A stretch of 64,000 nt of DNA from Candidatus Zipacnadum vermilionense (lineage in GTDB: Bacteria; Armatimonadota; Zipacnadia; Zipacnadales; Zipacnadaceae): assembly GCA_029821755.1 (NCBI GenBank), contig JALGSV010000002.1, forward strand, positions 18,591 through 82,590, read 5' to 3'. Positions 4,391 through 58,724 of this stretch are shown piece after piece. A model generated the notes under the pieces. The model ran no database searches. It was not told the origin of the DNA and saw only the letters and a program-made list of their open reading frames with translations. The number at the start of each line of letters is the position of its first letter. Within the stretch, counting starts at the first letter, position 1. A program made the translations under genes and the position numbers.

Positions 4391-4954
4391 ATGGGAGACG
4401 ACACCGGCTTCGGGGCGATTCTGGGCCTGCTGGACCCCTCGGCGCCCCCCGAGGCTCACCGGGCGCTGCGCGAGGCCTACCTGTGGGCGCGAGAACTGTA
4501 CGGTGACCAACGGCGCCAGGACAGTTACTCCGTTCTCACTCACGCCTGCTCCGTCGCTGCGGACGTATCCCGCTTTGGGCACCGGGACCCGGAGATGCTG
4601 GCGAGTGCCCTCCTCCACGACGTTCTGGAGGTCACCCACGCCTCTCCCACCGAGATCGAGCGCCGTTTCGGCCCCCGCGTGCTGCGCCTGGTCGAAGCCC
4701 TCACCCATGGGCCCGGCGAGCCCACCGCGGTCTCAGCCCAACGCGCACTCGAAGCCGGCGAGGACGCCGTACTACTGCGCCTCTGTGATCGGCTCGACGG
4801 CCTCCGCCGTAGCCGCCTCCGCTCTCCCCTCTCCCGCTCCCGCTTCCTTGCCGCTACCCACGAAACTTACATCCCCCTGGCGGAGCAGCACTTCCCCGCC
4901 CTCGCCACCACGATGCGCCAAGCGCTCCGCGAAGTAGAGCAGACGCTGGAGTAG
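4391..4954 (+). CDS. HD-domain phosphohydrolase, RelA/SpoT hydrolase-like (small alarmone hydrolase-like)
   Basis: Motif ELYGDQRRQDSYSVLTHACSVA...LLHDVLEVT...EIERRFGPRVLRLVEALT resembles the (p)ppGpp hydrolase HD domain. Confidence 0.55.
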   Translation: MGDDTGFGAILGLLDPSAPPEAHRALREAYLWARELYGDQRRQDSYSVLTHACSVAADVSRFGHRDPEMLASALLHDVLEVTHASPTEIERRFGPRVLRLVEALTHGPGEPTAVSAQRALEAGEDAVLLRLCDRLDGLRRSRLRSPLSRSRFLAATHETYIPLAEQHFPALATTMRQALREVEQTLE

Positions 4955-5082
4955 AGCCACGTGCCTCCGATCACATGGCGGCCTACGCTACAGACACTCC
5001 CTTTCCCTATCCGGTTTCCTCTTGACCCCCCTCCCTATCAAGCGCGCGGAAGGTACGCAAGGGGGGCAGGGGAGGAGTCGCC

Positions 5083-5904: not shown

Positions 5905-6714
5905 CTAACCCTCACCTCCCATCGGGAAGGCCGGTGCCCTGGCATCTGCCGGCTGGCGCAACAACCCTTCCAGGTGCGGCTTGACGATGTCGCGCATCTG
6001 CCGCTGCTGCTCGCCGATGGGCAGTGTGCCGTCGATGATGGTGAGGTCGAACTCCGTCGCCGCCTGGTCATACTGCTCCAGGATCCTCCCTTGAAACAGC
6101 GCGAAGCTCTCCTCCGGATCATCCGACAACCCCAGGTCCATCCCCGCCTCGTACCACTTCAACTCCGGCCGGCCCGAGAGAATGCGGTCTAGGGCCACCT
6201 CCAGCGGGACCCGGAAGTAGAACCCAACCGTAGGGCGCACGGCGAAGGAGTACACCTCCCGCACCCAAGCCGGGTCGCAACCGCGCGCCACGTCCCGTGC
6301 GAAGGCGGTGTAAACGTAGCGGTCCGCCAGCACCGCCGCCCCTGCCCGCAGTGGCGGCACGATGTTGCGCTCGGTCCGGTCCGCGAAGTCGGTGGCGTGG
6401 ATCAGGGAGAAGGTGAGAGGAGTGAGTAGCCGGCGCGATTTGCCACGCCGCGTGGTCCGCTTGACCAGCGGGGAGGAATTCCACTCCGAGAAAAATGTGC
6501 TGTAGCCTTGCGAAAGCAGCCACTTGTACAGCAGACTGATCTGTGTGCTCTTGCCCGACCCGTCAATACCCTCCACCACGAAGAGCCGACCGCGATAGTG
6601 CTCACTGGGTTGTGCCATCCCGACACCGCCGTTCTCGTAGTATAGGCTGTGACCTGTTGTAGGGCGGGGGCCGCCTCCCTCCCCGGTGGGGGCAGCATTA
6701 TAGTAGCCGCCCAT
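5905..6714 (-). CDS. thymidylate kinase-like P-loop kinase (paralog 2); alternative start ATG 6618
   Basis: Walker A LFVVEGIDGSGKSTQ and a DRYVYT motif. Its stop abuts the start of paralog 1 (0-nt gap). The long form carries a Gly-rich N-terminal extension. Confidence 0.6.
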   Translation of the reverse strand: MGGYYNAAPTGEGGGPRPTTGHSLYYENGGVGMAQPSEHYRGRLFVVEGIDGSGKSTQISLLYKWLLSQGYSTFFSEWNSSPLVKRTTRRGKSRRLLTPLTFSLIHATDFADRTERNIVPPLRAGAAVLADRYVYTAFARDVARGCDPAWVREVYSFAVRPTVGFYFRVPLEVALDRILSGRPELKWYEAGMDLGLSDDPEESFALFQGRILEQYDQAATEFDLTIIDGTLPIGEQQRQMRDIVKPHLEGLLRQPADARAPAFPMGGEG

Positions 6715-28416: not shown

Positions 28417-28509
28417 AGTGCGACGATCCCGTAGCGGCAGGGAGCAGTGGACTGTGACGCGGACATTATACTGAGGATCACGTATTGATGGCAAGAGTCA
28501 ATCCGGAGG

Positions 28510-28578
28510 TGGAACGTGGAAAACGGCCTGATCGAGGGGTTTGTCCCGTCGTTTTCCACGTTCCATCTTCCACGTTCC
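28510..28578. promoter_or_regulatory. candidate operator: 16-nt perfect inverted repeat TGGAACGTGGAAAACG-N23-CGTTTTCCACGTTCCA plus a third half-site TTCCACGTTCCA
   Basis: Read directly from the sequence. Lies 85-150 nt upstream of the GH2 start (28662), in the divergent region shared with the PBP4 gene. Confidence 0.4.
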
Positions 28579-31055: not shown

Positions 31056-31105
31056 TCCCAGTGGCACCGGCGTCCCGCCGGTGTTCCCCTGGCCCCAAAC
31101 AAGAG

Positions 31106-37137: not shown

Positions 37138-38196
37138 TCACTTGCCTCCCGGTGGCACCGGCGTCTCGCCGGTGCGAGGTGGAGGGGGCTCTCCCGAGGG
37201 GAGAATCGGCGAGACGCCGGTACCACCCGACTCGCCGTCCTCCCCATTTCCGACTTCCGACTTCCGATTCTCGACTTCCCCTCCCATCGCCACAAACACA
37301 TCCTCCAGCGACGGCTCCACCTCTCGCGGCGCCAGTTCTCCCACGCCCGCCTCCCGCAGCGCACGCCACGCCTCCGCCGGCGCCGCCTCCGGTCGCAGGG
37401 TCACATGCAGTCGGTCACCGAAGACCTCCACTCCCTCCACCAGCGGCAAACGCTTGAGCATCTCCCGCGCCAGGTGCTGAGGGCGGCAGCGGACCTCGAA
37501 GATGCGGCTGTGGATCGACTCCCGCAGCGCCGCCGGAGTATCCTGGCGCAGAATTTGCCCCTGGTGCAGGAAGGCGACGCGGTTGCAGCGGGCGGCCTCG
37601 TCCATGTAGGGCGTACACAAAAGCATGGTCACGCCCTGGCGAGGCAGGTCGTAGAGGATTTGCCAGAAGTCGCGCCGAGAGAGGGGGTCCACGCCGGTGG
37701 TGGGCTCGTCCAGCAACAGTACCTGGGGGCGGTGAATCAGCGCGCAGATAAGCGACAACTTCTGCCGCATCCCGCCGGACAGCGCCGCGGCCAGCCGATC
37801 CCGGAAGGGCGCCATCTGCGTGATCTCCAACAGCTCCTCCCGCCGCGCCGTCCACGTCCCCGGCGGGACGGTGTACAGGTCGGCTAAGTAGGCGATGTTC
37901 TCATTGACGGTCAGGTCGCGATGCAGACTGAACCGCTGGGGCACATACCCGATGCGCGCCTTGACTTCCTCGGGATCGCGTACCGCGTCATGCCCGGCCA
38001 CCCGTACCTCCCCGGCATCGGGAAGCAGAATCCCGCACAGCATCCGCAGCGTGGTCGTCTTTCCCGCCCCATCCGGTCCCACCAGCCCCATGATCTCCCC
38101 AGTGCCCACCTCCAGGTCCAACCCGTCCACCGCAACCACGTCCTCGAAGGCCTTGCGCAAGCCTCGGACCTGTACGGCCAGATCGCCGCTCACCAC
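37138..38196 (-). CDS. ABC transporter ATP-binding protein with low-complexity C-terminal tail
   Basis: Walker A GPDGAGKTT, signature LSGGMRQK, Walker B LLLDEPTTGVD. The last ~45 aa (ENRKSEVGNGEDGESGGTGVSPILPSGEPPPPRTGETPVPPGGK) are encoded by palindromic/direct repeats. Confidence 0.85.
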   Translation of the reverse strand: MVSGDLAVQVRGLRKAFEDVVAVDGLDLEVGTGEIMGLVGPDGAGKTTTLRMLCGILLPDAGEVRVAGHDAVRDPEEVKARIGYVPQRFSLHRDLTVNENIAYLADLYTVPPGTWTARREELLEITQMAPFRDRLAAALSGGMRQKLSLICALIHRPQVLLLDEPTTGVDPLSRRDFWQILYDLPRQGVTMLLCTPYMDEAARCNRVAFLHQGQILRQDTPAALRESIHSRIFEVRCRPQHLAREMLKRLPLVEGVEVFGDRLHVTLRPEAAPAEAWRALREAGVGELAPREVEPSLEDVFVAMGGEVENRKSEVGNGEDGESGGTGVSPILPSGEPPPPRTGETPVPPGGK

Positions 38197-52351: not shown

Positions 52352-53557
52352 ATGAGCGTCTTGAGCTACCGCTATGTCGTTGTCGGAGCCGGGCTGGCCG
52401 GAGCCTCGGCCGTGGAGGGGATCCGCGAGGTCGACCCGGAGGGGTCCCTTCTGCTGCTCGGCCACGAGAAGCACCTACCCTACGATCGCCCCCCGCTGTC
52501 CAAGAAGTTGTGGTTCGGCAAGATGAAGCTCGAGAAGGTCTATGTCCATCCCGAGGAGTGGTACATGGAGGCCGGCGTCGAGGTGCTCCCCCATGTGGAC
52601 GTCGCCGGTCTGGACCCGGCGGCCCAGCGCCTCACCACCGCTGGCGGGCGGCAGTATACTTACGAGAAGCTGCTGCTGGCCACCGGCGCCACGCCCCGCC
52701 CCCTCCCCCTCCCCGGCGGCGACCTGGAGGGGCTTTACTATTACCGCTACCTCGATGATTACCTCCGCCTGCGCGAGCAGGTGACGGCGGGCGCCCGCGT
52801 GACGGTCATCGGCGGCGGCTTCATCGGCTCGGAGATCGCCGCAGCGCTCAATATGAACCACGCCGCAGTGACCCTCCTCTACCCTGACCCCTACCTGGTG
52901 GACCGCGTCTTCCCCGACTACCTGGGCCGAGCGCTGGAGGAGCACTGCCGCGGCAAGGGCGTCCGCCTCCTGCAGGGCCAGCAGCCCGTGGCGCTGGAGC
53001 GGGAGGGCGAGCAGTACGTCACGGTCACCGACACCGATGAGCGAATCGTTTCTGACGCGGTGGTCATCGGCATCGGCGTCACCCCCAACCTCAGCCTCGC
53101 TGAATCGGCGGGGCTGCAGGTGGGCAACGGCGTCGTGGTGGACGAGTACTGCCGGACCTCCCACCCCAACATCCATGCGGCGGGCGACGTCGCCCTCTTC
53201 CCCTACACCGCCCTGGGCCAGACCCGCCGCATCGAGCACTGGGACCATGCGATCAACCACGGCAGGCAAGCTGGCCGCAACCTGGCCGACGCCGGGGCGC
53301 CGTATGACTACATGCCCTACTTCTACTCCGACCTGTTCGAGTTCGGCTACGAGGCGGTAGGCGACGTCAGCTCCCGCCTGACGACCTTCGCCGACTGGCA
53401 GAAAGAGAACGACACCGGCGTCATCTACTACCTGCAAGAGGGCCGGGTGCGCGGAGCTATGATGTGCAATGTCTGGGACCAGGTCCCCGCCGCCCGAGAG
53501 CTAATCCAGTCCGGGAAACAGATGACCGAGGCGGAGCTGAAGGGAGCGATCTCGTAG
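52352..53557 (+). CDS. FAD-dependent pyridine nucleotide-disulfide oxidoreductase (ferredoxin/rubredoxin reductase or AIF-like)
   Basis: YVVVGAGLAGASA dinucleotide-binding motif, a second Rossmann motif VTVIGGGFIGSEIAA, and AAGDVA. Confidence 0.7.
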   Translation: MSVLSYRYVVVGAGLAGASAVEGIREVDPEGSLLLLGHEKHLPYDRPPLSKKLWFGKMKLEKVYVHPEEWYMEAGVEVLPHVDVAGLDPAAQRLTTAGGRQYTYEKLLLATGATPRPLPLPGGDLEGLYYYRYLDDYLRLREQVTAGARVTVIGGGFIGSEIAAALNMNHAAVTLLYPDPYLVDRVFPDYLGRALEEHCRGKGVRLLQGQQPVALEREGEQYVTVTDTDERIVSDAVVIGIGVTPNLSLAESAGLQVGNGVVVDEYCRTSHPNIHAAGDVALFPYTALGQTRRIEHWDHAINHGRQAGRNLADAGAPYDYMPYFYSDLFEFGYEAVGDVSSRLTTFADWQKENDTGVIYYLQEGRVRGAMMCNVWDQVPAARELIQSGKQMTEAELKGAIS

Positions 53558-53676
53558 GGACGGCTTTCCGGGCTTCGGAGCCGGGACAGCCGCCCGTTCG
53601 GTGCGCGATCAGTTAGCGAACGGGCGTGTGTTGCGGTGAGCACACCGCAAAACGCGCCCCTACAGGAGGGAACATC

Positions 53677-53997
53677 ATGTCCCTGGCCGAGGAAGACTGC
53701 GCGCCCCCGGAGGGCCTTCCGGCCCTGACCGCCGCCGAGGCCTCGGCACTGCTCGCCGAGGTCTCCGACTGGACCCTCGCCGACCAGGCTCTGACCCGCG
53801 AGCTGCTCTTCCCCGATTTTCCAGAGGCCATCGCCTTCGTTGACCGCCTCGCGGAGGTCGTTCAGGCCCAGGACCACCATCCCGACATCTGCATCTCATA
53901 CCGCAAGGTCCGCCTGACCTACACCACCCACAAAGCCGGCGGCCTCACCCGCAACGACTTCATCATGGCGACCAAGACGGACAGGTTGCAGAAGTGA
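53677..53997 (+). CDS. phhB: pterin-4a-carbinolamine dehydratase (PCD/DCoH)
   Basis: QDHHPDICISYRKVRLTYTTH and GLTRNDFIMATKTD match the PCD signature. GGAGGG lies 6 nt upstream of ATG 53677. Confidence 0.85.
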   Translation: MSLAEEDCAPPEGLPALTAAEASALLAEVSDWTLADQALTRELLFPDFPEAIAFVDRLAEVVQAQDHHPDICISYRKVRLTYTTHKAGGLTRNDFIMATKTDRLQK

Positions 53998-54094
53998 CAG
54001 GTGATAGGTGATGGCTGGTAAATGGGGCCCTGAGCCCGCGCCCTAGTCCCTTTCCTTGCCCGCCATTTACCATCAATCACTCCTCCCAAAACCC

Positions 54095-54835
54095 ATGACG
54101 AACCTCACCAACCACACGGCTCTCGTCACCGGCGCGGCCAAGCGCCTCGGCCGGGCCATCTCCCTGGCCCTGGGCCGGGAGGGCGCCAATGTGGTGCTGC
54201 ACTACCGCTCCTCCCACGAGGAGGCCGAGGCCTTGGCCGGCGAACTGGAGGCCATGGGCGTCCACGCCTGGACGGTGCAGGCGGATTTCGCCGACCCCGC
54301 ACAGACCGAGTCGCTGGTCGCTCGCGCCGGGGAACTAGCCGGGCCGCTGGACCTGCTGGTCAACAGCGCCTCCGACTTCCCGCCCAGCACGATGGCGGAG
54401 GTAAGGTGGGAGGACCTGCAGCAGCAGCTAGCGGTCACCGCCTGGGCGCCTTTCGAGCTCTGCCGCAGCTTCGCCCGCCAAGCAGCGGCTGGCAGCATCG
54501 TCAACCTGCTCGACTCGCGCGTGACCGCCTCGGACTTCAGCCATGTCGCCTACCTCTGGGCCAAGCAGCTTCTCGCCCATATGACCAGCCATCTGGCCCT
54601 CACTTACGCGCCGGGGATAACCGTCAACGGCGTAGCTCCCGGCCTGATTCTACCGCCGCCCGGCCAAGACGATTCCTACCTGGAGGCCCTGGTACACACC
54701 GTCCCCCTCCGCCGCCACGGCGCCCCGGAGGACATAGCCGCCGCCGCCGTCTTCCTCCTTAAGAGCCCCTTCATCACGGGGGAGGTCATCTTCGTAGATG
54801 GAGGCCGGCATCTGGAGGAGAGGGAGAGGGCGTGA
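54095..54835 (+). CDS. SDR-family pteridine reductase-like oxidoreductase (PTR1/FolM-like)
   Basis: TALVTGAAKRLGRAISLAL...VVLHY closely resembles the PTR1 N-terminus (ALVTGAAKRLGRSIAEGL...CLHY). SDR catalytic region is present. Confidence 0.7.
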   Translation: MTNLTNHTALVTGAAKRLGRAISLALGREGANVVLHYRSSHEEAEALAGELEAMGVHAWTVQADFADPAQTESLVARAGELAGPLDLLVNSASDFPPSTMAEVRWEDLQQQLAVTAWAPFELCRSFARQAAAGSIVNLLDSRVTASDFSHVAYLWAKQLLAHMTSHLALTYAPGITVNGVAPGLILPPPGQDDSYLEALVHTVPLRRHGAPEDIAAAAVFLLKSPFITGEVIFVDGGRHLEERERA

Positions 54836-54987
54836 CGGGCGACGGTGTCAGCAGGGAAACGGGAACTACACCCCTCGAAGGTCGGCTCTCTGAACCTTTC
54901 CCTCCCGCCTGCGTCCTCCAGTTGACCTTGGCGTGGCGATGTCCCTGACCGCCAGGCTAGTATGACACGTCGAAAGGAGATCGCAAG
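54836..54987 (+). promoter_or_regulatory. structured 5' leader of the DUF2769-like gene carrying motif GTGTCAGCAGGGAAACGGGAACT; candidate cis-regulatory RNA
   Basis: 5' CGACGGTGTCA pairs with TGACACGTCG located just before the AAGGAG SD. The motif is shared with the folB leader (55326..55389). Confidence 0.3.
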
Positions 54988-55266
54988 ATGAGCCAAGTCG
55001 CCAGATCGAAAGAGAACCTGGGGAAATGTATGTGCATGAAATGTCCGACCTACACCTTCATGTGCAAGATGAGGAACATGCCGGGGAACATGATGGCCAT
55101 GATGGGTGATCTGGAGAAGAAGGAGCATGTCGAGGCGATGTACTGTGCGTTTGAGCAAAGCAGATGCATGGACGAAGAAAAGGGCTGCATCTGCGAGGAA
55201 TGCCTCGTACACAAGGAGAACGGTCTCGACAAAGCCTACTACTGTATGGCTACCGGCGGCAGATAG
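54988..55266 (+). CDS. small Cys/Met-rich protein, DUF2769-like (putative metal-binding)
   Basis: 92 aa with 10 Cys and 11 Met (CMCMKCP, MMAMMG, CICEECL, YYC). AAGGAG lies 7 nt upstream of ATG. GC content is clearly lower than the flanks. Confidence 0.6.
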   Translation: MSQVARSKENLGKCMCMKCPTYTFMCKMRNMPGNMMAMMGDLEKKEHVEAMYCAFEQSRCMDEEKGCICEECLVHKENGLDKAYYCMATGGR

Positions 55267-55325
55267 AGTCTGCCACGGTTCGCTGATGCGACCCTAGTTG
55301 ACTAGCACAGAAAGTTGCGGCCGCC

Positions 55326-55389
55326 GACCGTCAGTGTCAGCAGGGAACGGCAACTGCTGTCGTCTGACGTTGCCGACTGACACTGACGA
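55326..55389 (+). promoter_or_regulatory. compact structured leader immediately upstream of folB: perfect 12-bp closing stem CGTCAGTGTCAG/CTGACACTGACG enclosing motif GTGTCAGCAGGGAACGGCAACT
   Basis: Inverted repeats read from the sequence. The element ends 3 nt before the folB ATG, so it could occlude translation initiation. Confidence 0.35.
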
Positions 55390-55391
55390 CT

Positions 55392-55751
55392 ATGCCCGCC
55401 TACCGCATCTACATCACCGACCTGACGGCCCGCTGTGTGCTCGGCGTCTCCGCGGAGGAGCGGCGCGAGAAGCAGGAGGTCGTCATCAACGTGGCGCTCT
55501 CCGCCGACCTGAGCGCCGCCGCCGCCAGCGACCGCTTTGAGGACACCCTCGACTACCGGACGCTGAAGAAGGTGATGCTGGCGATGGTCGAAAGCTCGGA
55601 CTACTACCTCCTGGAGGCGCTGACCGAGCGGGTCGCGGACCTGTGCCTGCAGGATGCGCGCGTGCAGCGGGTGACAGTAAGGATCGAGAAGCCCTCGGCC
55701 CTGCGCTTTGCAAGGAGCGTGGGGGTGGAGGTGGAGAAGGGGCGATTGTAG
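55392..55751 (+). CDS. folB: dihydroneopterin aldolase
   Basis: YRIYITDL...VLGVSAEERREKQEVVINVAL...DTLDYRTLKKVM...LLEALTERVADLCL...KPSALRFARSVGVEVE matches the FolB family pattern. Confidence 0.8.
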   Translation: MPAYRIYITDLTARCVLGVSAEERREKQEVVINVALSADLSAAAASDRFEDTLDYRTLKKVMLAMVESSDYYLLEALTERVADLCLQDARVQRVTVRIEKPSALRFARSVGVEVEKGRL

Positions 55752-55776
55752 GGCGCGGGCTCGTACCGCGCCCTAC
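55748..55776. repeat. REP-like palindrome type B GTAGGGCGCGGGCTCGTACCGCGCCCTAC between folB and folK
   Basis: 10-bp stem. A related unit occurs at 60993 and a variant at 63398. Confidence 0.7.
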
Positions 55777-55795
55777 AGCGGAGGGAGACGCCCCT

Positions 55796-56362
55796 GTGCC
55801 TCGCGCCTTCATCGTTCTCGGCTCCAATCTCGATCCGGAGCGCCATATCCCGGCGGCCCTGCGCCGCCTGGCGGAAACCGTCCACCTGGTGGCTGTCTCA
55901 ACCTTCTACGTCTCCCCGGCCTTGGACCGTCCGAAGCAGCCGGACTTCTACAATGGCGCGGTCGCGATCGAGACCGACCTGCCGCCCCGCGAGCTGAAGT
56001 TCGTCGTCCTGCGCAAGATCGAGGCGGAGCTGGGCCGACAGCGAAGCGCCGACAAGTTCGCCGCGCGCGAGATCGACCTGGACCTGGTCTGGCACGACGG
56101 CCTGACCCTCAACGAACCAGACCTAGTGCTGCCCGACCCGGAGATCCCTGCTCGTCCCTTCTTGGCCGTGCCGCTGGCTGAGTTGGCCCCGGAGTTTTTC
56201 CCGGCGGAGGCCCGGCCGGCCGACCCGCACTTGCGCCCCCTGCCCGATTTCACCGCCCGCCTCCGAAAGGAACTGCTCAATGAACCACGAGAAGGTACAG
56301 AAGCTCATTCGCGAATTGCTGGTGGAGATGGGCGAGGACCCCGATCGCGAGGGTCTGGTTGA
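55796..56362 (+). CDS. folK: 2-amino-4-hydroxy-6-hydroxymethyldihydropteridine pyrophosphokinase (HPPK)
   Basis: [11 protein letters not shown]...[32 protein letters not shown]...REIDLDLV...[19 protein letters not shown]. Probable GTG start at 55796. Overlaps folE by ~80 nt in another frame. Confidence 0.75.
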
Positions 56363-56852
56363 CACCCCGGCGCGCGTCGCCAGGTCCTACGAGTTCCTCA
56401 CTAGCGGCTACCACCAGTCACAGGCGGAGATCATCGGCAGCGCGGTCTTCACTCAGCAGGTTGACCACATGGTGATCGTACGCGACATTGAGCTGTACAG
56501 CCTGTGCGAGCACCACCTGCTGCCCTTCTTCGGCCGCTGCCACCTCGGCTACATCGCCGACGGCACCGTCCTGGGGGTGAGCAAGCTGGCGCGGCTGGTG
56601 GACATGTACGCCCGGCGCCTGCAGATTCAGGAGCGCCTTACCGAACAGGTGGCACAGGCCATCATGGACCAGGGCGCCGCCGGCGCCGGCGTAGTTATCG
56701 AGGCCCAGCACCTCTGCATGATGATGCGCGGGGTAGAGAAGCAGAACTCCTTGATGACCACCAGCGCGGTCCTGGGCACCTTCCGCCACTCCCCGACCAC
56801 ACGGAACGAGTTCCAGACGCTAATCGCGAGGTCGCGCCCGCGTACGGACTGA
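56280..56852 (+). CDS. folE: GTP cyclohydrolase I
   Basis: [59 protein letters not shown], and [25 protein letters not shown] match the FolE signatures. Confidence 0.9.
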
Positions 56853-56918
56853 CCGGCGGTGCGCACCCGCACCTGCGGCTTGCAGGTATCGGCGGGAGAG
56901 CCGGAGCAATACTCTTCT

Positions 56919-58724
56919 ATGACGACCCCGCACCTTACGACAGGTGATGAGCCCATGGATACTGAAACCCTACCTTCTGGCGCCCGGTTTGCTTTCTGGG
57001 AGGATGAGACGGTCTACCGCGCCGTTTTCCACGTAGATCAGCAACATCCCGCTGCCTCCGACGACAATCCGGGTAGGGAAGAAGCGCCTTTCCGCACTAT
57101 CAACGCCGCGGCGCAGCGGTTGCAGCCGGGAGAGAAGGTGGTGATCCACGCCGGCCTCTATCGTGAATGCGTGCGGCCGGCGCGAGGAGGCACGGGACCG
57201 GAGGCGATGATCGCCTACGAAGCCGCACCCGGCGAGCGCGTGGTGGTGCGCGGGTCCGAGGTCTGGACGCCGTCGGCCCGCCCCAGTGCTGGCTATGCGC
57301 TACGGCCGACCCCGGAGGGCGCCCCCTGGATGGCGGAGTTGCCCGAGATCTTCAGCGAAGACTACAACCCCTTCCTCCTGCGCAACGCCTATGACTACCT
57401 GGAGCAGTACGGTAACCTGAGCGACAAGCGGTTCCTCCGGCGAGCTTTGCAGCGCCGCGGCATGGTCTTCGTCGACGGCGTGCCGCTGGAGCAGGTCTAC
57501 CGCTTCCGCGACCTGGCGGGGCACGCCGGGGCTTTTTGGGTGGAGGAACCGGGCCGACGCCTGCACGTTCGCCTGCCCGGGGATGCCGACCCCGCGCAGC
57601 ACAAGATCGAGGTGACGGCGCGCGAGCAGATCTTCGCGCCGCGCGAGTTCGGCCTGGGCTACCTGCGCGTGAGCGGCCTCCTCTTTGAGCACGCGGCGGA
57701 CGGCTTGCCGGTCCCCCAGCGCGCCGCGGTCAGCACCATGCGCGGACACCATTGGATCATCGAGAACTGCGAGGTTGCCTGGGCCAACGCCTGCGGGATG
57801 GATATCGGCGCTCAGACCTGGGATGCCACCGTCCCCGATCCCACCGGAGGCCATATCATCCGGGGCAACACCATCCGGCAGTGCGGCGTGTGCGGCTTGG
57901 CCGGCGCCCTGGGTGTGCACCACACGCTGGTCGAGGGCAACACCTTTGAGCATATCGGGACCCTGAACCTCGAGCGGATGTGGGAATGCGCCGGCCTCAA
58001 GTTCCATCTGGCGGAGCACTGCCTGATCCGGGGCAACGTGTTCCGCCACCTTCACAACGCCCTTGGTCTCTGGCTCGATTGCAGCAACGTGGACAACCGA
58101 GTCACGGGTAACGTGTTCACTGATATCGAGACTCTCGCCGCCGCCGTCTACATGGAGATGAATTTCGAGCGGAACCTGGTTGACCACAACGTCTTCTGGG
58201 ACATACGCTCGGCGGACCCCGCCGGGGACAGTTCCGGACATTCCGGGTCCGCGATTCGCTCCGACTGCAACGAAGCGCTCCTCGTGGCGCACAACTTCAT
58301 CGGCCGTACGCAGGGGTACGGCATAGACTTCTCCCTGAACCAGAGTGATCGGCGTCACGAGGGGCGTACCGGCTTGTGCCGCGCCAACGAGGCCTACAAC
58401 AACGTCCTCTACCGCTGCCCCCATCGCGTGCACCTGGGCCGGCGGGAGGAAAACTGCAGCGACGGCAATCTGTTCGACTTGACCGATGACCAGTATTCCT
58501 TTGAGATCGCCTTCCCCGCGCCGGGGTGCTATCAGAATCTGGCCGGCTGGCAGCGCTACTTCGACCTCGATCTGCACTCCGCTCAGGCCCACCTGTCCGC
58601 GGAGGTCGATCCGGAGACCGGCGATCTCAATTGGAGCACCGACGGCTCGCTACCGACAACGCAGCCGGTCGACGCCCTGCCGGAGAGCGCCCACCGCCGC
58701 AGGCCGGGTCCCTCCCGGGACTGA
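56919..58724 (+). CDS. right-handed parallel beta-helix (pectate-lyase fold) protein
   Basis: Repeated PbH1-type turns (NCEVAWANACGMDIG, GNTIRQCGVCGLAG, GNTFEHIG, GNVFRHLHNALGLWLDCSNVDNRVTGNVF). Start uncertain: ATG 56919 or 56955. Confidence 0.55.
   Translation: MTTPHLTTGDEPMDTETLPSGARFAFWEDETVYRAVFHVDQQHPAASDDNPGREEAPFRTINAAAQRLQPGEKVVIHAGLYRECVRPARGGTGPEAMIAYEAAPGERVVVRGSEVWTPSARPSAGYALRPTPEGAPWMAELPEIFSEDYNPFLLRNAYDYLEQYGNLSDKRFLRRALQRRGMVFVDGVPLEQVYRFRDLAGHAGAFWVEEPGRRLHVRLPGDADPAQHKIEVTAREQIFAPREFGLGYLRVSGLLFEHAADGLPVPQRAAVSTMRGHHWIIENCEVAWANACGMDIGAQTWDATVPDPTGGHIIRGNTIRQCGVCGLAGALGVHHTLVEGNTFEHIGTLNLERMWECAGLKFHLAEHCLIRGNVFRHLHNALGLWLDCSNVDNRVTGNVFTDIETLAAAVYMEMNFERNLVDHNVFWDIRSADPAGDSSGHSGSAIRSDCNEALLVAHNFIGRTQGYGIDFSLNQSDRRHEGRTGLCRANEAYNNVLYRCPHRVHLGRREENCSDGNLFDLTDDQYSFEIAFPAPGCYQNLAGWQRYFDLDLHSAQAHLSAEVDPETGDLNWSTDGSLPTTQPVDALPESAHRRRPGPSRD

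Follow-up and report, generated by a model that had tools for sequence, protein, structure and literature searches.

A DUF2769 gene probably inserted into the pterin/folate operon of Candidatus Zipacnadum vermilionense, between two copies of a native intergenic repeat

In the pterin/folate operon carried by the window (the whole 64,000-nt stretch of DNA analyzed here), a segment of about 0.45 kb encoding a DUF2769 protein has probably been inserted, in a lineage-specific event, between the SDR gene and folB, with a native repeat duplicated on both sides and no ligand sensing involved. The motif preceding both the DUF2769 gene and folB, which an earlier note had interpreted as a shared structured leader, is, as judged from sequence comparison, a duplicated native repeat of the SDR-folB junction, itself dispersed and clade-specific. 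The feature is real yet ordinary: a gene insertion and a short dispersed repeat, both of known kinds.

The small gene had been placed in a pterin cluster, and the gene row bears this out (Table 1): it is surrounded by genes encoding a pterin-4a-carbinolamine dehydratase (Pterin_4a), a pteridine-reductase-like SDR, FolB, HPPK and GTP cyclohydrolase I. For the SDR, the best NCBIfam matches are PRK09134 and the pteridine reductase PRK09135, both under their respective cut-offs. The assignment of the small gene as DUF2769-like and Cys/Met-rich has likewise been confirmed, the ORF matching Pfam PF10967 with 52.4 bits (cut-off 22.8) over the full model (1-57). Compared with its closest homologs, the ORF is intact and contains all 10 of the 10 family cysteines, and the encoded protein is Met-rich. 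In front of folB there is no SD, and the position of its start is kept in relatives, as shown by alignments and by the upstream sequence. Since neither a sigma-70-like promoter nor an intrinsic terminator was detected within 53400-57000, the DUF2769 gene probably shares the transcript of the operon.

Table 1. Genes and sequence features of the pterin/folate operon around the SDR-folB junction (positions in the window).
Feature	Position	Strand	Evidence or remark
Pyr_redox_2 oxidoreductase	52352-53557	+	
Pterin-4a-carbinolamine dehydratase (Pterin_4a)	53626-53997	+	Pfam
SDR, pteridine-reductase-like	54056-54835	+	Pfam adh_short_C2 1.8e-38
Copy 1 of the probable native junction repeat, CGACGGTGTCAGCAGGGAAACGGGAACTAC	54840-54869	+	Aligns to the L022/L024 junction copy; nhmmer E 2e-4
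Apparent continuation of the ancestral junction, ACCCCTCGAAGGTCGGCT	54870-54887	+	Resemblance to the L022 junction, GAACCCCCTCGCCGGCTACCGAC
Probable inserted 5' flank of DUF2769, with putative 3' arm TGACACGTCG (54963-54972) and SD AAGGAG (54974-54979)	54888-54987	+	
DUF2769 gene, 92 aa	54988-55266	+	Pfam PF10967 E 8e-14
Probable inserted 3' flank	55267-55328	+	No recognizable terminator
Copy 2 of the probable native junction repeat, CGTCAGTGTCAGCAGGGAACGGCAACTGC	55329-55357	+	nhmmer E 9e-6; aligns to the L024 junction
Inverted partial copy of the repeat, forming the hairpin 3' arm	55365-55388	-	nhmmer minus-strand match (55365-55387) E 0.05
folB (dihydroneopterin aldolase)	55392-55751	+	Pfam FolB 1.5e-31
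HPPK (folK)	55796-56362	+	Pfam
GTP cyclohydrolase I (folE)	56280-56852	+	Pfam

Using a FolB protein search, six syntenic relatives were identified (L017, L018, L022, L023, L024 and L025), with FolB proteins 81-86% identical to that of the window. Two of them, L017 and L018, keep the order 1200-aa ORF, Pyr_redox, (PCD), SDR, folB, folK and folE, with 72-85% amino-acid identity, and the other four (L022, L023, L024 and L025) keep SDR-folB-folK; the SDR orthologs of L017, L018, L022 and L024 are 70-75% identical. The SDR gene and folB overlap by 4 nt in L023 and are spaced by 12 nt in L017, 19 nt in L018, about 37 nt in L022 and 57 nt in L024 and L025, against 556 nt in the window. In more distant Armatimonadota MAGs (FolB 61-66% identical), the SDR gene also abuts folB, and the best named FolB relatives of the window are Armatimonadota MAGs (66%). 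As the junction is short in all relatives, the 556-nt spacing is specific to the lineage of the window. The DUF2769 gene is present in 0 of the 6 syntenic relatives, none of which gave a tblastn match.

The phyletic pattern argues for acquisition of the DUF2769 gene, which is absent from all the syntenic relatives and has its nearest homologs in other phyla. The nearest homolog, 74% identical, is located on a contig of 54% GC, and the closest set (58-74% identical) is found on lower-GC contigs, its named members being Chloroflexi MAGs. Alternatively, the gene may have moved in from another place in the same genome. Two further signs of insertion had been put forward, namely a GC content far below that of the flanks and the use of an AAGGAG SD. 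While the GC dip is real (0.51-0.55, compared to about 0.67 around it, with 0.516 for the gene), the argument drawn from it is weak. The low GC content stems mostly from the amino-acid composition of this Met/Lys/Cys/Glu-rich protein, as reflected by GC1 (0.42) and GC2 (0.38), while GC3 (0.753) is only mildly lower than in the neighboring genes (0.76-0.93; folK, 0.757), so that nothing points clearly to a recent acquisition. DUF2769 genes found elsewhere are likewise GC-poor, by 6-11 GC points relative to their host locus. The AAGGAG SD is indeed present, but it is no mark of foreign origin because several host genes are also preceded by GGAG-type SDs.

Seven other DUF2769 loci (L001-L007) were compared with the window. 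Their gene contexts include hydantoinase/CoA ligase, Crp/cytochrome P460, GatCAB/Rce1 and HSP20/glyoxalase/SOD, and the idea that DUF2769 is functionally linked to pterin genes was rejected, fol genes being present in 0 of the 7 contexts. An SDR gene adjoins DUF2769 in L003 and L004. The motif found in the window upstream of the DUF2769 gene is absent in all seven loci, and nucleotide homology between them and the window ends at the ends of the coding sequence. In the literature, DUF2769 is described solely as uncharacterized and otherwise appears in fold surveys; a single DUF2769 small protein has been detected in Methanosarcina mazei, under heat stress only (PMC12704099). No sequence match was found in the PDB, and the AlphaFold2 model obtained with a 10-sequence alignment (pLDDT 48.6) was too poor for a fold search.

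The presence of a motif common to the leaders of the small gene and of folB has been upheld. The best local alignment of both leaders is the 23-nt sequence GTGTCAGCAGGGA(A)ACGG(G/C)AACT, whose score of 34 exceeds that of shuffled sequences (16.4 +/- 2.3, maximum 27), and the exact 14-mer GTGTCAGCAGGGAA occurs only twice in the 64-kb window, at 54845 and 55334. Over its full length of about 28-30 nt, the motif reads CG(A/T)C(G/A)GTGTCAG...AACT(A/G)C, and it forms an imperfect direct repeat of about 28 nt, with 3 mismatches and 1 indel between the copies. A stretch following folE (56880-56900) that resembled a third, degenerate copy does not stand out from shuffles (p = 0.46) and was discarded.

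A single copy of the motif, in the form ...GTGTCAGTGTCAGT-TGA-CAGTGTCAGTAGGGAAGGCAACTCCC..., occurs in the SDR-folB junctions of L024, L025 and L022, which represent two independent lineages, and it aligns to both copies of the window. As the repeat pre-exists at this site in relatives devoid of DUF2769, it did not arrive with the gene. Native junction sequence appears to be retained on both sides of the insert: 1) the stretch following copy 1 (54870-54887) may be homologous to the L022 junction (CCCCTCG..GG.CGGCT), a short match which is suggestive only, and 2) copy 2 runs on into the conserved ...GACT-ATG start of folB. On this basis, the inserted segment would extend roughly from 54888 to 55328. 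Past 54887, no similarity to relatives was found, and the 5' flank of the DUF2769 gene (54888-54987) has no nucleotide similarity either to relatives or to the other DUF2769 loci. The earlier note had offered, as a fallback, that the two direct repeats mark the insertion of the small gene as a cassette. Of this proposal, the insertion is retained, on account of the six relatives lacking DUF2769, but repeats borne by a cassette are not, since they are native to the junction.

In the proposed event, a segment with an intact DUF2769 gene, SD included, would have entered the short spacer between SDR and folB in a conserved pterin/folate operon. The native repeat was probably duplicated because such a spacer, laden with repeats, is prone to slippage, to template switching or to illegitimate recombination. 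Neither a recombinase nor inverted terminal repeats nor a canonical target-site duplication was found at the insert. Such an insertion would break the translational coupling of SDR and folB which prevails in relatives.

The arrangement of direct repeats around a single foreign gene could also suggest that the repeats are the ends or the attachment sites of a small non-autonomous element (MITE-like, att core or integron-like cassette) which delivered DUF2769, a reading that we hold to be improbable. In line with it, copy 2, an imperfect palindrome interrupted by an extrahelical segment, bears a superficial likeness to an attC hairpin, and in L017 folBKE is flanked by copies on either side. However, the repeat already occupies the site in relatives without the gene, and folBKE is a conserved housekeeping block and not a cassette. 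By reading the sequence, the outer boxes do not fit the attC R''/R' consensus (RYYYAAC...GTTRRRY): the outer arms are CGTCAGTGTCAG and CTGACACTGACG, AAC and GTT occurring in the inner helix only, and none of 19 mid-size ORFs scanned in the window encodes an integrase or transposase. The features of a transposon or MITE were not found either, the ends of the insert showing no TIRs and no exact short TSD, and the 64 kb of the window together with about 170 kb of related loci yielding no more copies. Plasmid searches with both DNA and protein gave no match. Nor are the repeats target-site duplications left by any known mobile element, being about 28 nt long, imperfect and pre-existing in relatives.

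The copies found in the window represent the 3' half, about 28-30 nt, of a larger element with the layout GTGTCA hexamers, TTGACA, GTGTCAG and YRGGGAR. In L017, this element is located directly after the folE stop codon (6546-6590; GCGGTGTCAGTGTCAGTTGACAGTGTCAGCGGGGAGGAG; nhmmer E 1.6e-10), where it is identical to that of L024 over a 27-nt run when the sequences are read side by side, and the SDR-folB junction of L017 contains a truncated version of it. With an nhmmer profile of the element, the copies of L024, L025, L022 and the post-folE copy of L017 were retrieved at E 1e-10 to 4e-12. Altogether, the 64 kb of the window and about 170 kb of related loci contain about 7 copies, and no further copy was found there. 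The element thus occupies non-orthologous intergenic positions in related genomes (after folE in L017, at the junction in L024 and L022, and in the window). Its location after folE in L017 identifies it as a dispersed repeat and not as a fol leader. The search of related genomes for the motif ahead of fol genes, which the earlier note had suggested, recovered the junction copies of L022, L024 and L025 and showed that the motif is not general to orthologous folB leaders: it is absent or truncated at the folB junctions of L017, L018, L019 and L023, with L018 and L023 devoid of any. Junction turnover is in fact fast among equally close relatives, L018 having (CCCTGAC)n-like units, L024 (CTACCGA)n and L023 none. 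A metagenome scan with the 20-nt core, GTGTCAGCAGGGAAN{0,1}CGGNAAC, returned 2 matches in 241 million records, one of them inside a long ORF, and both are apparently due to chance.

Two functional interpretations of this element have been considered. According to the first one, which stands a small chance of being correct, the GTGTCA-hexamer element would be a functional module-boundary site of this uncultured, Armatimonadota-related clade, either a recombination hotspot where foreign genes are captured between the genes of an operon or a transcribed element bound by an RNA-binding protein or RNase and setting differential expression in the pterin operon; either way, the hairpin ahead of folB would have evolved as a translational gate. 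If a hotspot, the arrangement (with E for the element) would read E-DUF2769-E-folBKE in the window and E-folBKE-E in L017. The second one, decidedly improbable, is that the motif is a site for a transcription factor or an RNA-binding protein co-regulating DUF2769 and folBKE. The core is conserved between both copies, L022 and L024, and relatives hold a palindrome, TGTCA-GT-TGACA, at the SDR stop codon, but this palindrome is present in neither copy of the window. In addition, some equally close relatives have only a truncated element or none (the L017 junction, L018 and L023), no promoter-like sites are found nearby, and its hexamer-repeat nature and rapid turnover argue for neutral repeat dynamics.

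Regarding RNA structure, each copy of the motif had been described as part of a long-range closing stem ending at the ribosome-binding region, which proved right for folB and doubtful for the DUF2769 gene. At folB, the outer arms (55329-55340 and 55377-55388) form a perfect 12-bp stem, with p <= 2e-4 for this complementarity in 5000 shuffles, ending 3 nt ahead of the ATG; an inner 7-bp helix, CGGCAAC/GTTGCCG, is separated from it by an asymmetric 7-nt loop, CAGGGAA. This hairpin (-32.7 kcal/mol, z -2.5) is predicted with pair probabilities >0.98, and its 12 + 7 bp arms are perfect, with zero G-U pairs. The first closing stem (54840-54850/54963-54972) is made of 10 bp plus a bulge, spans 112 nt and is marginal (p about 0.04 compared to shuffles); its pairing is predicted with a probability of 0.0000, a fold that includes it is about 8 kcal/mol less favorable than the MFE, and the DUF2769 leader as a whole folds as shuffled sequences do (z 0.05).

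It has been argued from these stems that the motif is the aptamer core of a new translational riboswitch or cis-regulatory RNA, with a pterin- or folate-related ligand, the stems sequestering the ribosome-binding regions of DUF2769 and folB. The stable folB hairpin, the location of the motif 5' of two genes and its retention in the SDR-folB junction of some relatives are consistent with this idea, as is one apparently compensatory A-U to U-A difference between both stems (CGAC/GTCG versus CGTC/GACG), read from the sequence. Against it, 1) Rfam cmscan at the gathering score gave 0 matches in the whole window, and at E <= 10 the region 54700-55500 returned miRNA and frameshift noise only, so that the proposed check for THF (RF01831), THF-II, Moco (RF01055) and ZTP (RF01750) found no match; 2) of the two stems, only that of folB is robust, and nothing in copy 1 corresponds to the inner helix of copy 2; 3) the junctions of motif-bearing relatives lack a closing stem and are not more stably folded than shuffled sequences (z +0.42 and +0.64), and RNAalifold over 4 copies yields -2.94 kcal/mol, i.e., essentially no common structure and none conserved across homologous leaders; and 4) the motif has no consistent 5' UTR association with a coherent set of genes, considering the 7 DUF2769 loci, the folB junctions of L017, L018, L019 and L023, and the 3' side of folE in L017, and the 20-nt core gave only the two metagenome matches apparently due to chance. 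The riboswitch reading is thus highly improbable and already largely refuted.

Returning to the insertion with a duplicated native repeat, the folB hairpin can be accounted for without an aptamer. Copy 2 supplies its 5' arm and the CAGGGAA loop, and the hairpin as a whole consists of copy 2 joined to part of the same repeat in inverted orientation. That the arms are perfect and free of G-U pairs suggests that an inverted duplication took place recently, more than that an aptamer was selected. The A-U to U-A difference may have arisen by selection for pairing or, equally well, by quasi-palindrome correction, which would yield both the perfect arms and this difference without selection. As to its consequences, the SD-less start of folB would be occluded by the -33 kcal/mol stem, which probably reduces or uncouples FolB translation or else serves as an intercistronic mRNA stabilizer or processing site. 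Because hairpins built from 6-7-nt tandem repeats are common in the clade, a start-codon hairpin alone is no evidence of regulation.

Several such repeats were noted in passing. In L019, which has a repeat-built hairpin region at 4885-5000, (CCTCAGA)3...(TCTGAGG)3 closes right at the folB ATG (-72.5 kcal/mol, z -6.7). L018 has (GGAAGTC)n...(GACTTCC)n after folE (region 6450-6590), and L008 has (CCCTAGA)n ahead of folB. The window itself contains (GTGGAAC)/(GTTCCAC) arms at 28507-28575 and (TTCCGAC)4.6 at 37248-37279. A second dispersed repeat, GGCACCGGCGTCYCGCCGGTG, is found in the window at 31063, 37154 and 37204(-), and also in L017 and L018.

These results provide a caution, as two look-alike "leaders" that have closing stems and adjoin folate genes can mimic a riboswitch, where a duplicated native repeat around an acquired gene is the probable explanation here. 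They also illustrate how repeat-rich spacers can admit a foreign gene even where an operon is tightly packed and translationally coupled, and they flag an uncultured clade with intergenic regions rich in hexamer- and heptamer-repeat hairpins. Nothing new is learned from them on folate regulation or on the function of DUF2769.

Several known systems share part of these features. Like integron cassettes, the window has a single small, apparently promoterless ORF between repeated, partly palindromic sites in an operon-like array; unlike them, the repeat is native in cassette-free relatives, R''/R' boxes are lacking, no IntI was found among the scanned ORFs of the window and the neighbor is the housekeeping folBKE block. 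Similarly, the folB hairpin resembles THF-I (RF01831), THF-II (the folE motif) and ZTP riboswitches by its location upstream of a folate gene, its asymmetric internal loop and its closure at the translation start, but it differs from them in that no covariance model matches at E <= 10, no covariation is found and the motif also occurs outside fol leaders. Quasi-palindrome correction by template switching is well established as a source of mutations. With its products, the folB hairpin shares arms that are perfect and free of G-U pairs, a partial copy inverted beside a direct one and "compensatory" differences, and it is the sequence pattern that points to this mechanism in the window. Finally, the element can be compared to REP/BIME and STRR repeats. 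It is unrelated in sequence to the described families, no RAYT-type transposase was identified, and only about 7 copies are known here. In common with them, it is short (about 30-60 nt), is located in intergenic regions or at gene ends, is built on or adjoins 6-7-nt tandem units, occupies several slots in several genomes of one clade, and often forms hairpins when inverted. STRR heptamer repeats have reportedly been described in cyanobacteria, and intercistronic REP hairpins stabilize the upstream mRNA.

The 556-nt region inserted between the SDR and folB genes, which holds the DUF2769 gene, carries two copies of the heptamer AGTTGAC, against about 0.15 expected from the window's own density (17 per 64 kb). 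L024 and L017, two syntenic relatives in which SDR is directly followed by folB, have this heptamer as part of the repeat consensus where their SDR gene stops, and the two copies in the window may be the trace of further partial duplications. Directly upstream of the DUF2769 Shine-Dalgarno sequence lies TGACACGTCGAA, which is similar to TGACAGCGTCGAACC, the entire SDR-folB junction of L017, with 12 of 13 positions matching and one indel; the significance of this likeness, about 0.03, is a rough estimate only. This resemblance hints that the ancestral junction may cover a larger part of the left leader.

Further downstream, folK and folE as called overlap by about 80 nt, while the overlap is shorter in relatives (about 10-47 nt in L017, L018, L019, L022, L023 and L024). 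The actual folE start or folK end may deviate from the longest-ORF call.

Beyond this clade, one lineage possesses two tandem DUF2769 paralogues which adjoin HSP20, glyoxalase and Fe-SOD genes. Such a neighborhood would suit an uncharacterized Cys-rich family that acts in stress or redox processes; a small DUF2769 protein from M. mazei has been reported under heat stress only (PMC12704099). Upstream of another DUF2769 gene, in L003, two direct repeats (ATGGTGACAGGGATAG and ATGGTGATGGGGATATC) follow a good TTGACC...TATAAT promoter and may represent an operator; they are unrelated to the window motif.

Features and their positions in the window and in other loci
Feature	Window	Other loci
AGTTGAC heptamers	54920-54926; 55296-55302	
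Left-leader segment and similar junction	54963-54975	L017 4986-4999
folK	55796-56362	
folE	56280-56852	
Tandem DUF2769 paralogues		L006 4686-5285; L007 783-1382
Direct repeats		L003 3925-3980
Second GC-rich repeat	31063-31083; 37154-37174; 37204-37224(-)	L017 6679-6697; L018 8163-8181(-)
Tandem 6-7-nt repeats	28507-28575; 37248-37279	L019 4885-5000; L018 6450-6590; L008 1400-1485

A second dispersed repeat, GC-rich and self-palindromic, GGCACCGGCGTC(T/C)CGCCGGTG, occurs three times in the window, where none is expected by chance, and also in two relatives; the window copies at 37154 and 37204 form an inverted pair. Tandem 6-7-nt repeats, with units such as CCTCAGA, GGAAGTC/TTCCGAC, CCCTAGA and GTGGAAC, are common in the intergenic regions of the clade. 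They are often arranged as inverted arrays leading to very long hairpins adjoining start or stop codons; the one in L019, a folB locus of a related genome, attains -72.5 kcal/mol (z -6.7). These tandem repeats are reminiscent of the cyanobacterial STRR heptamers.
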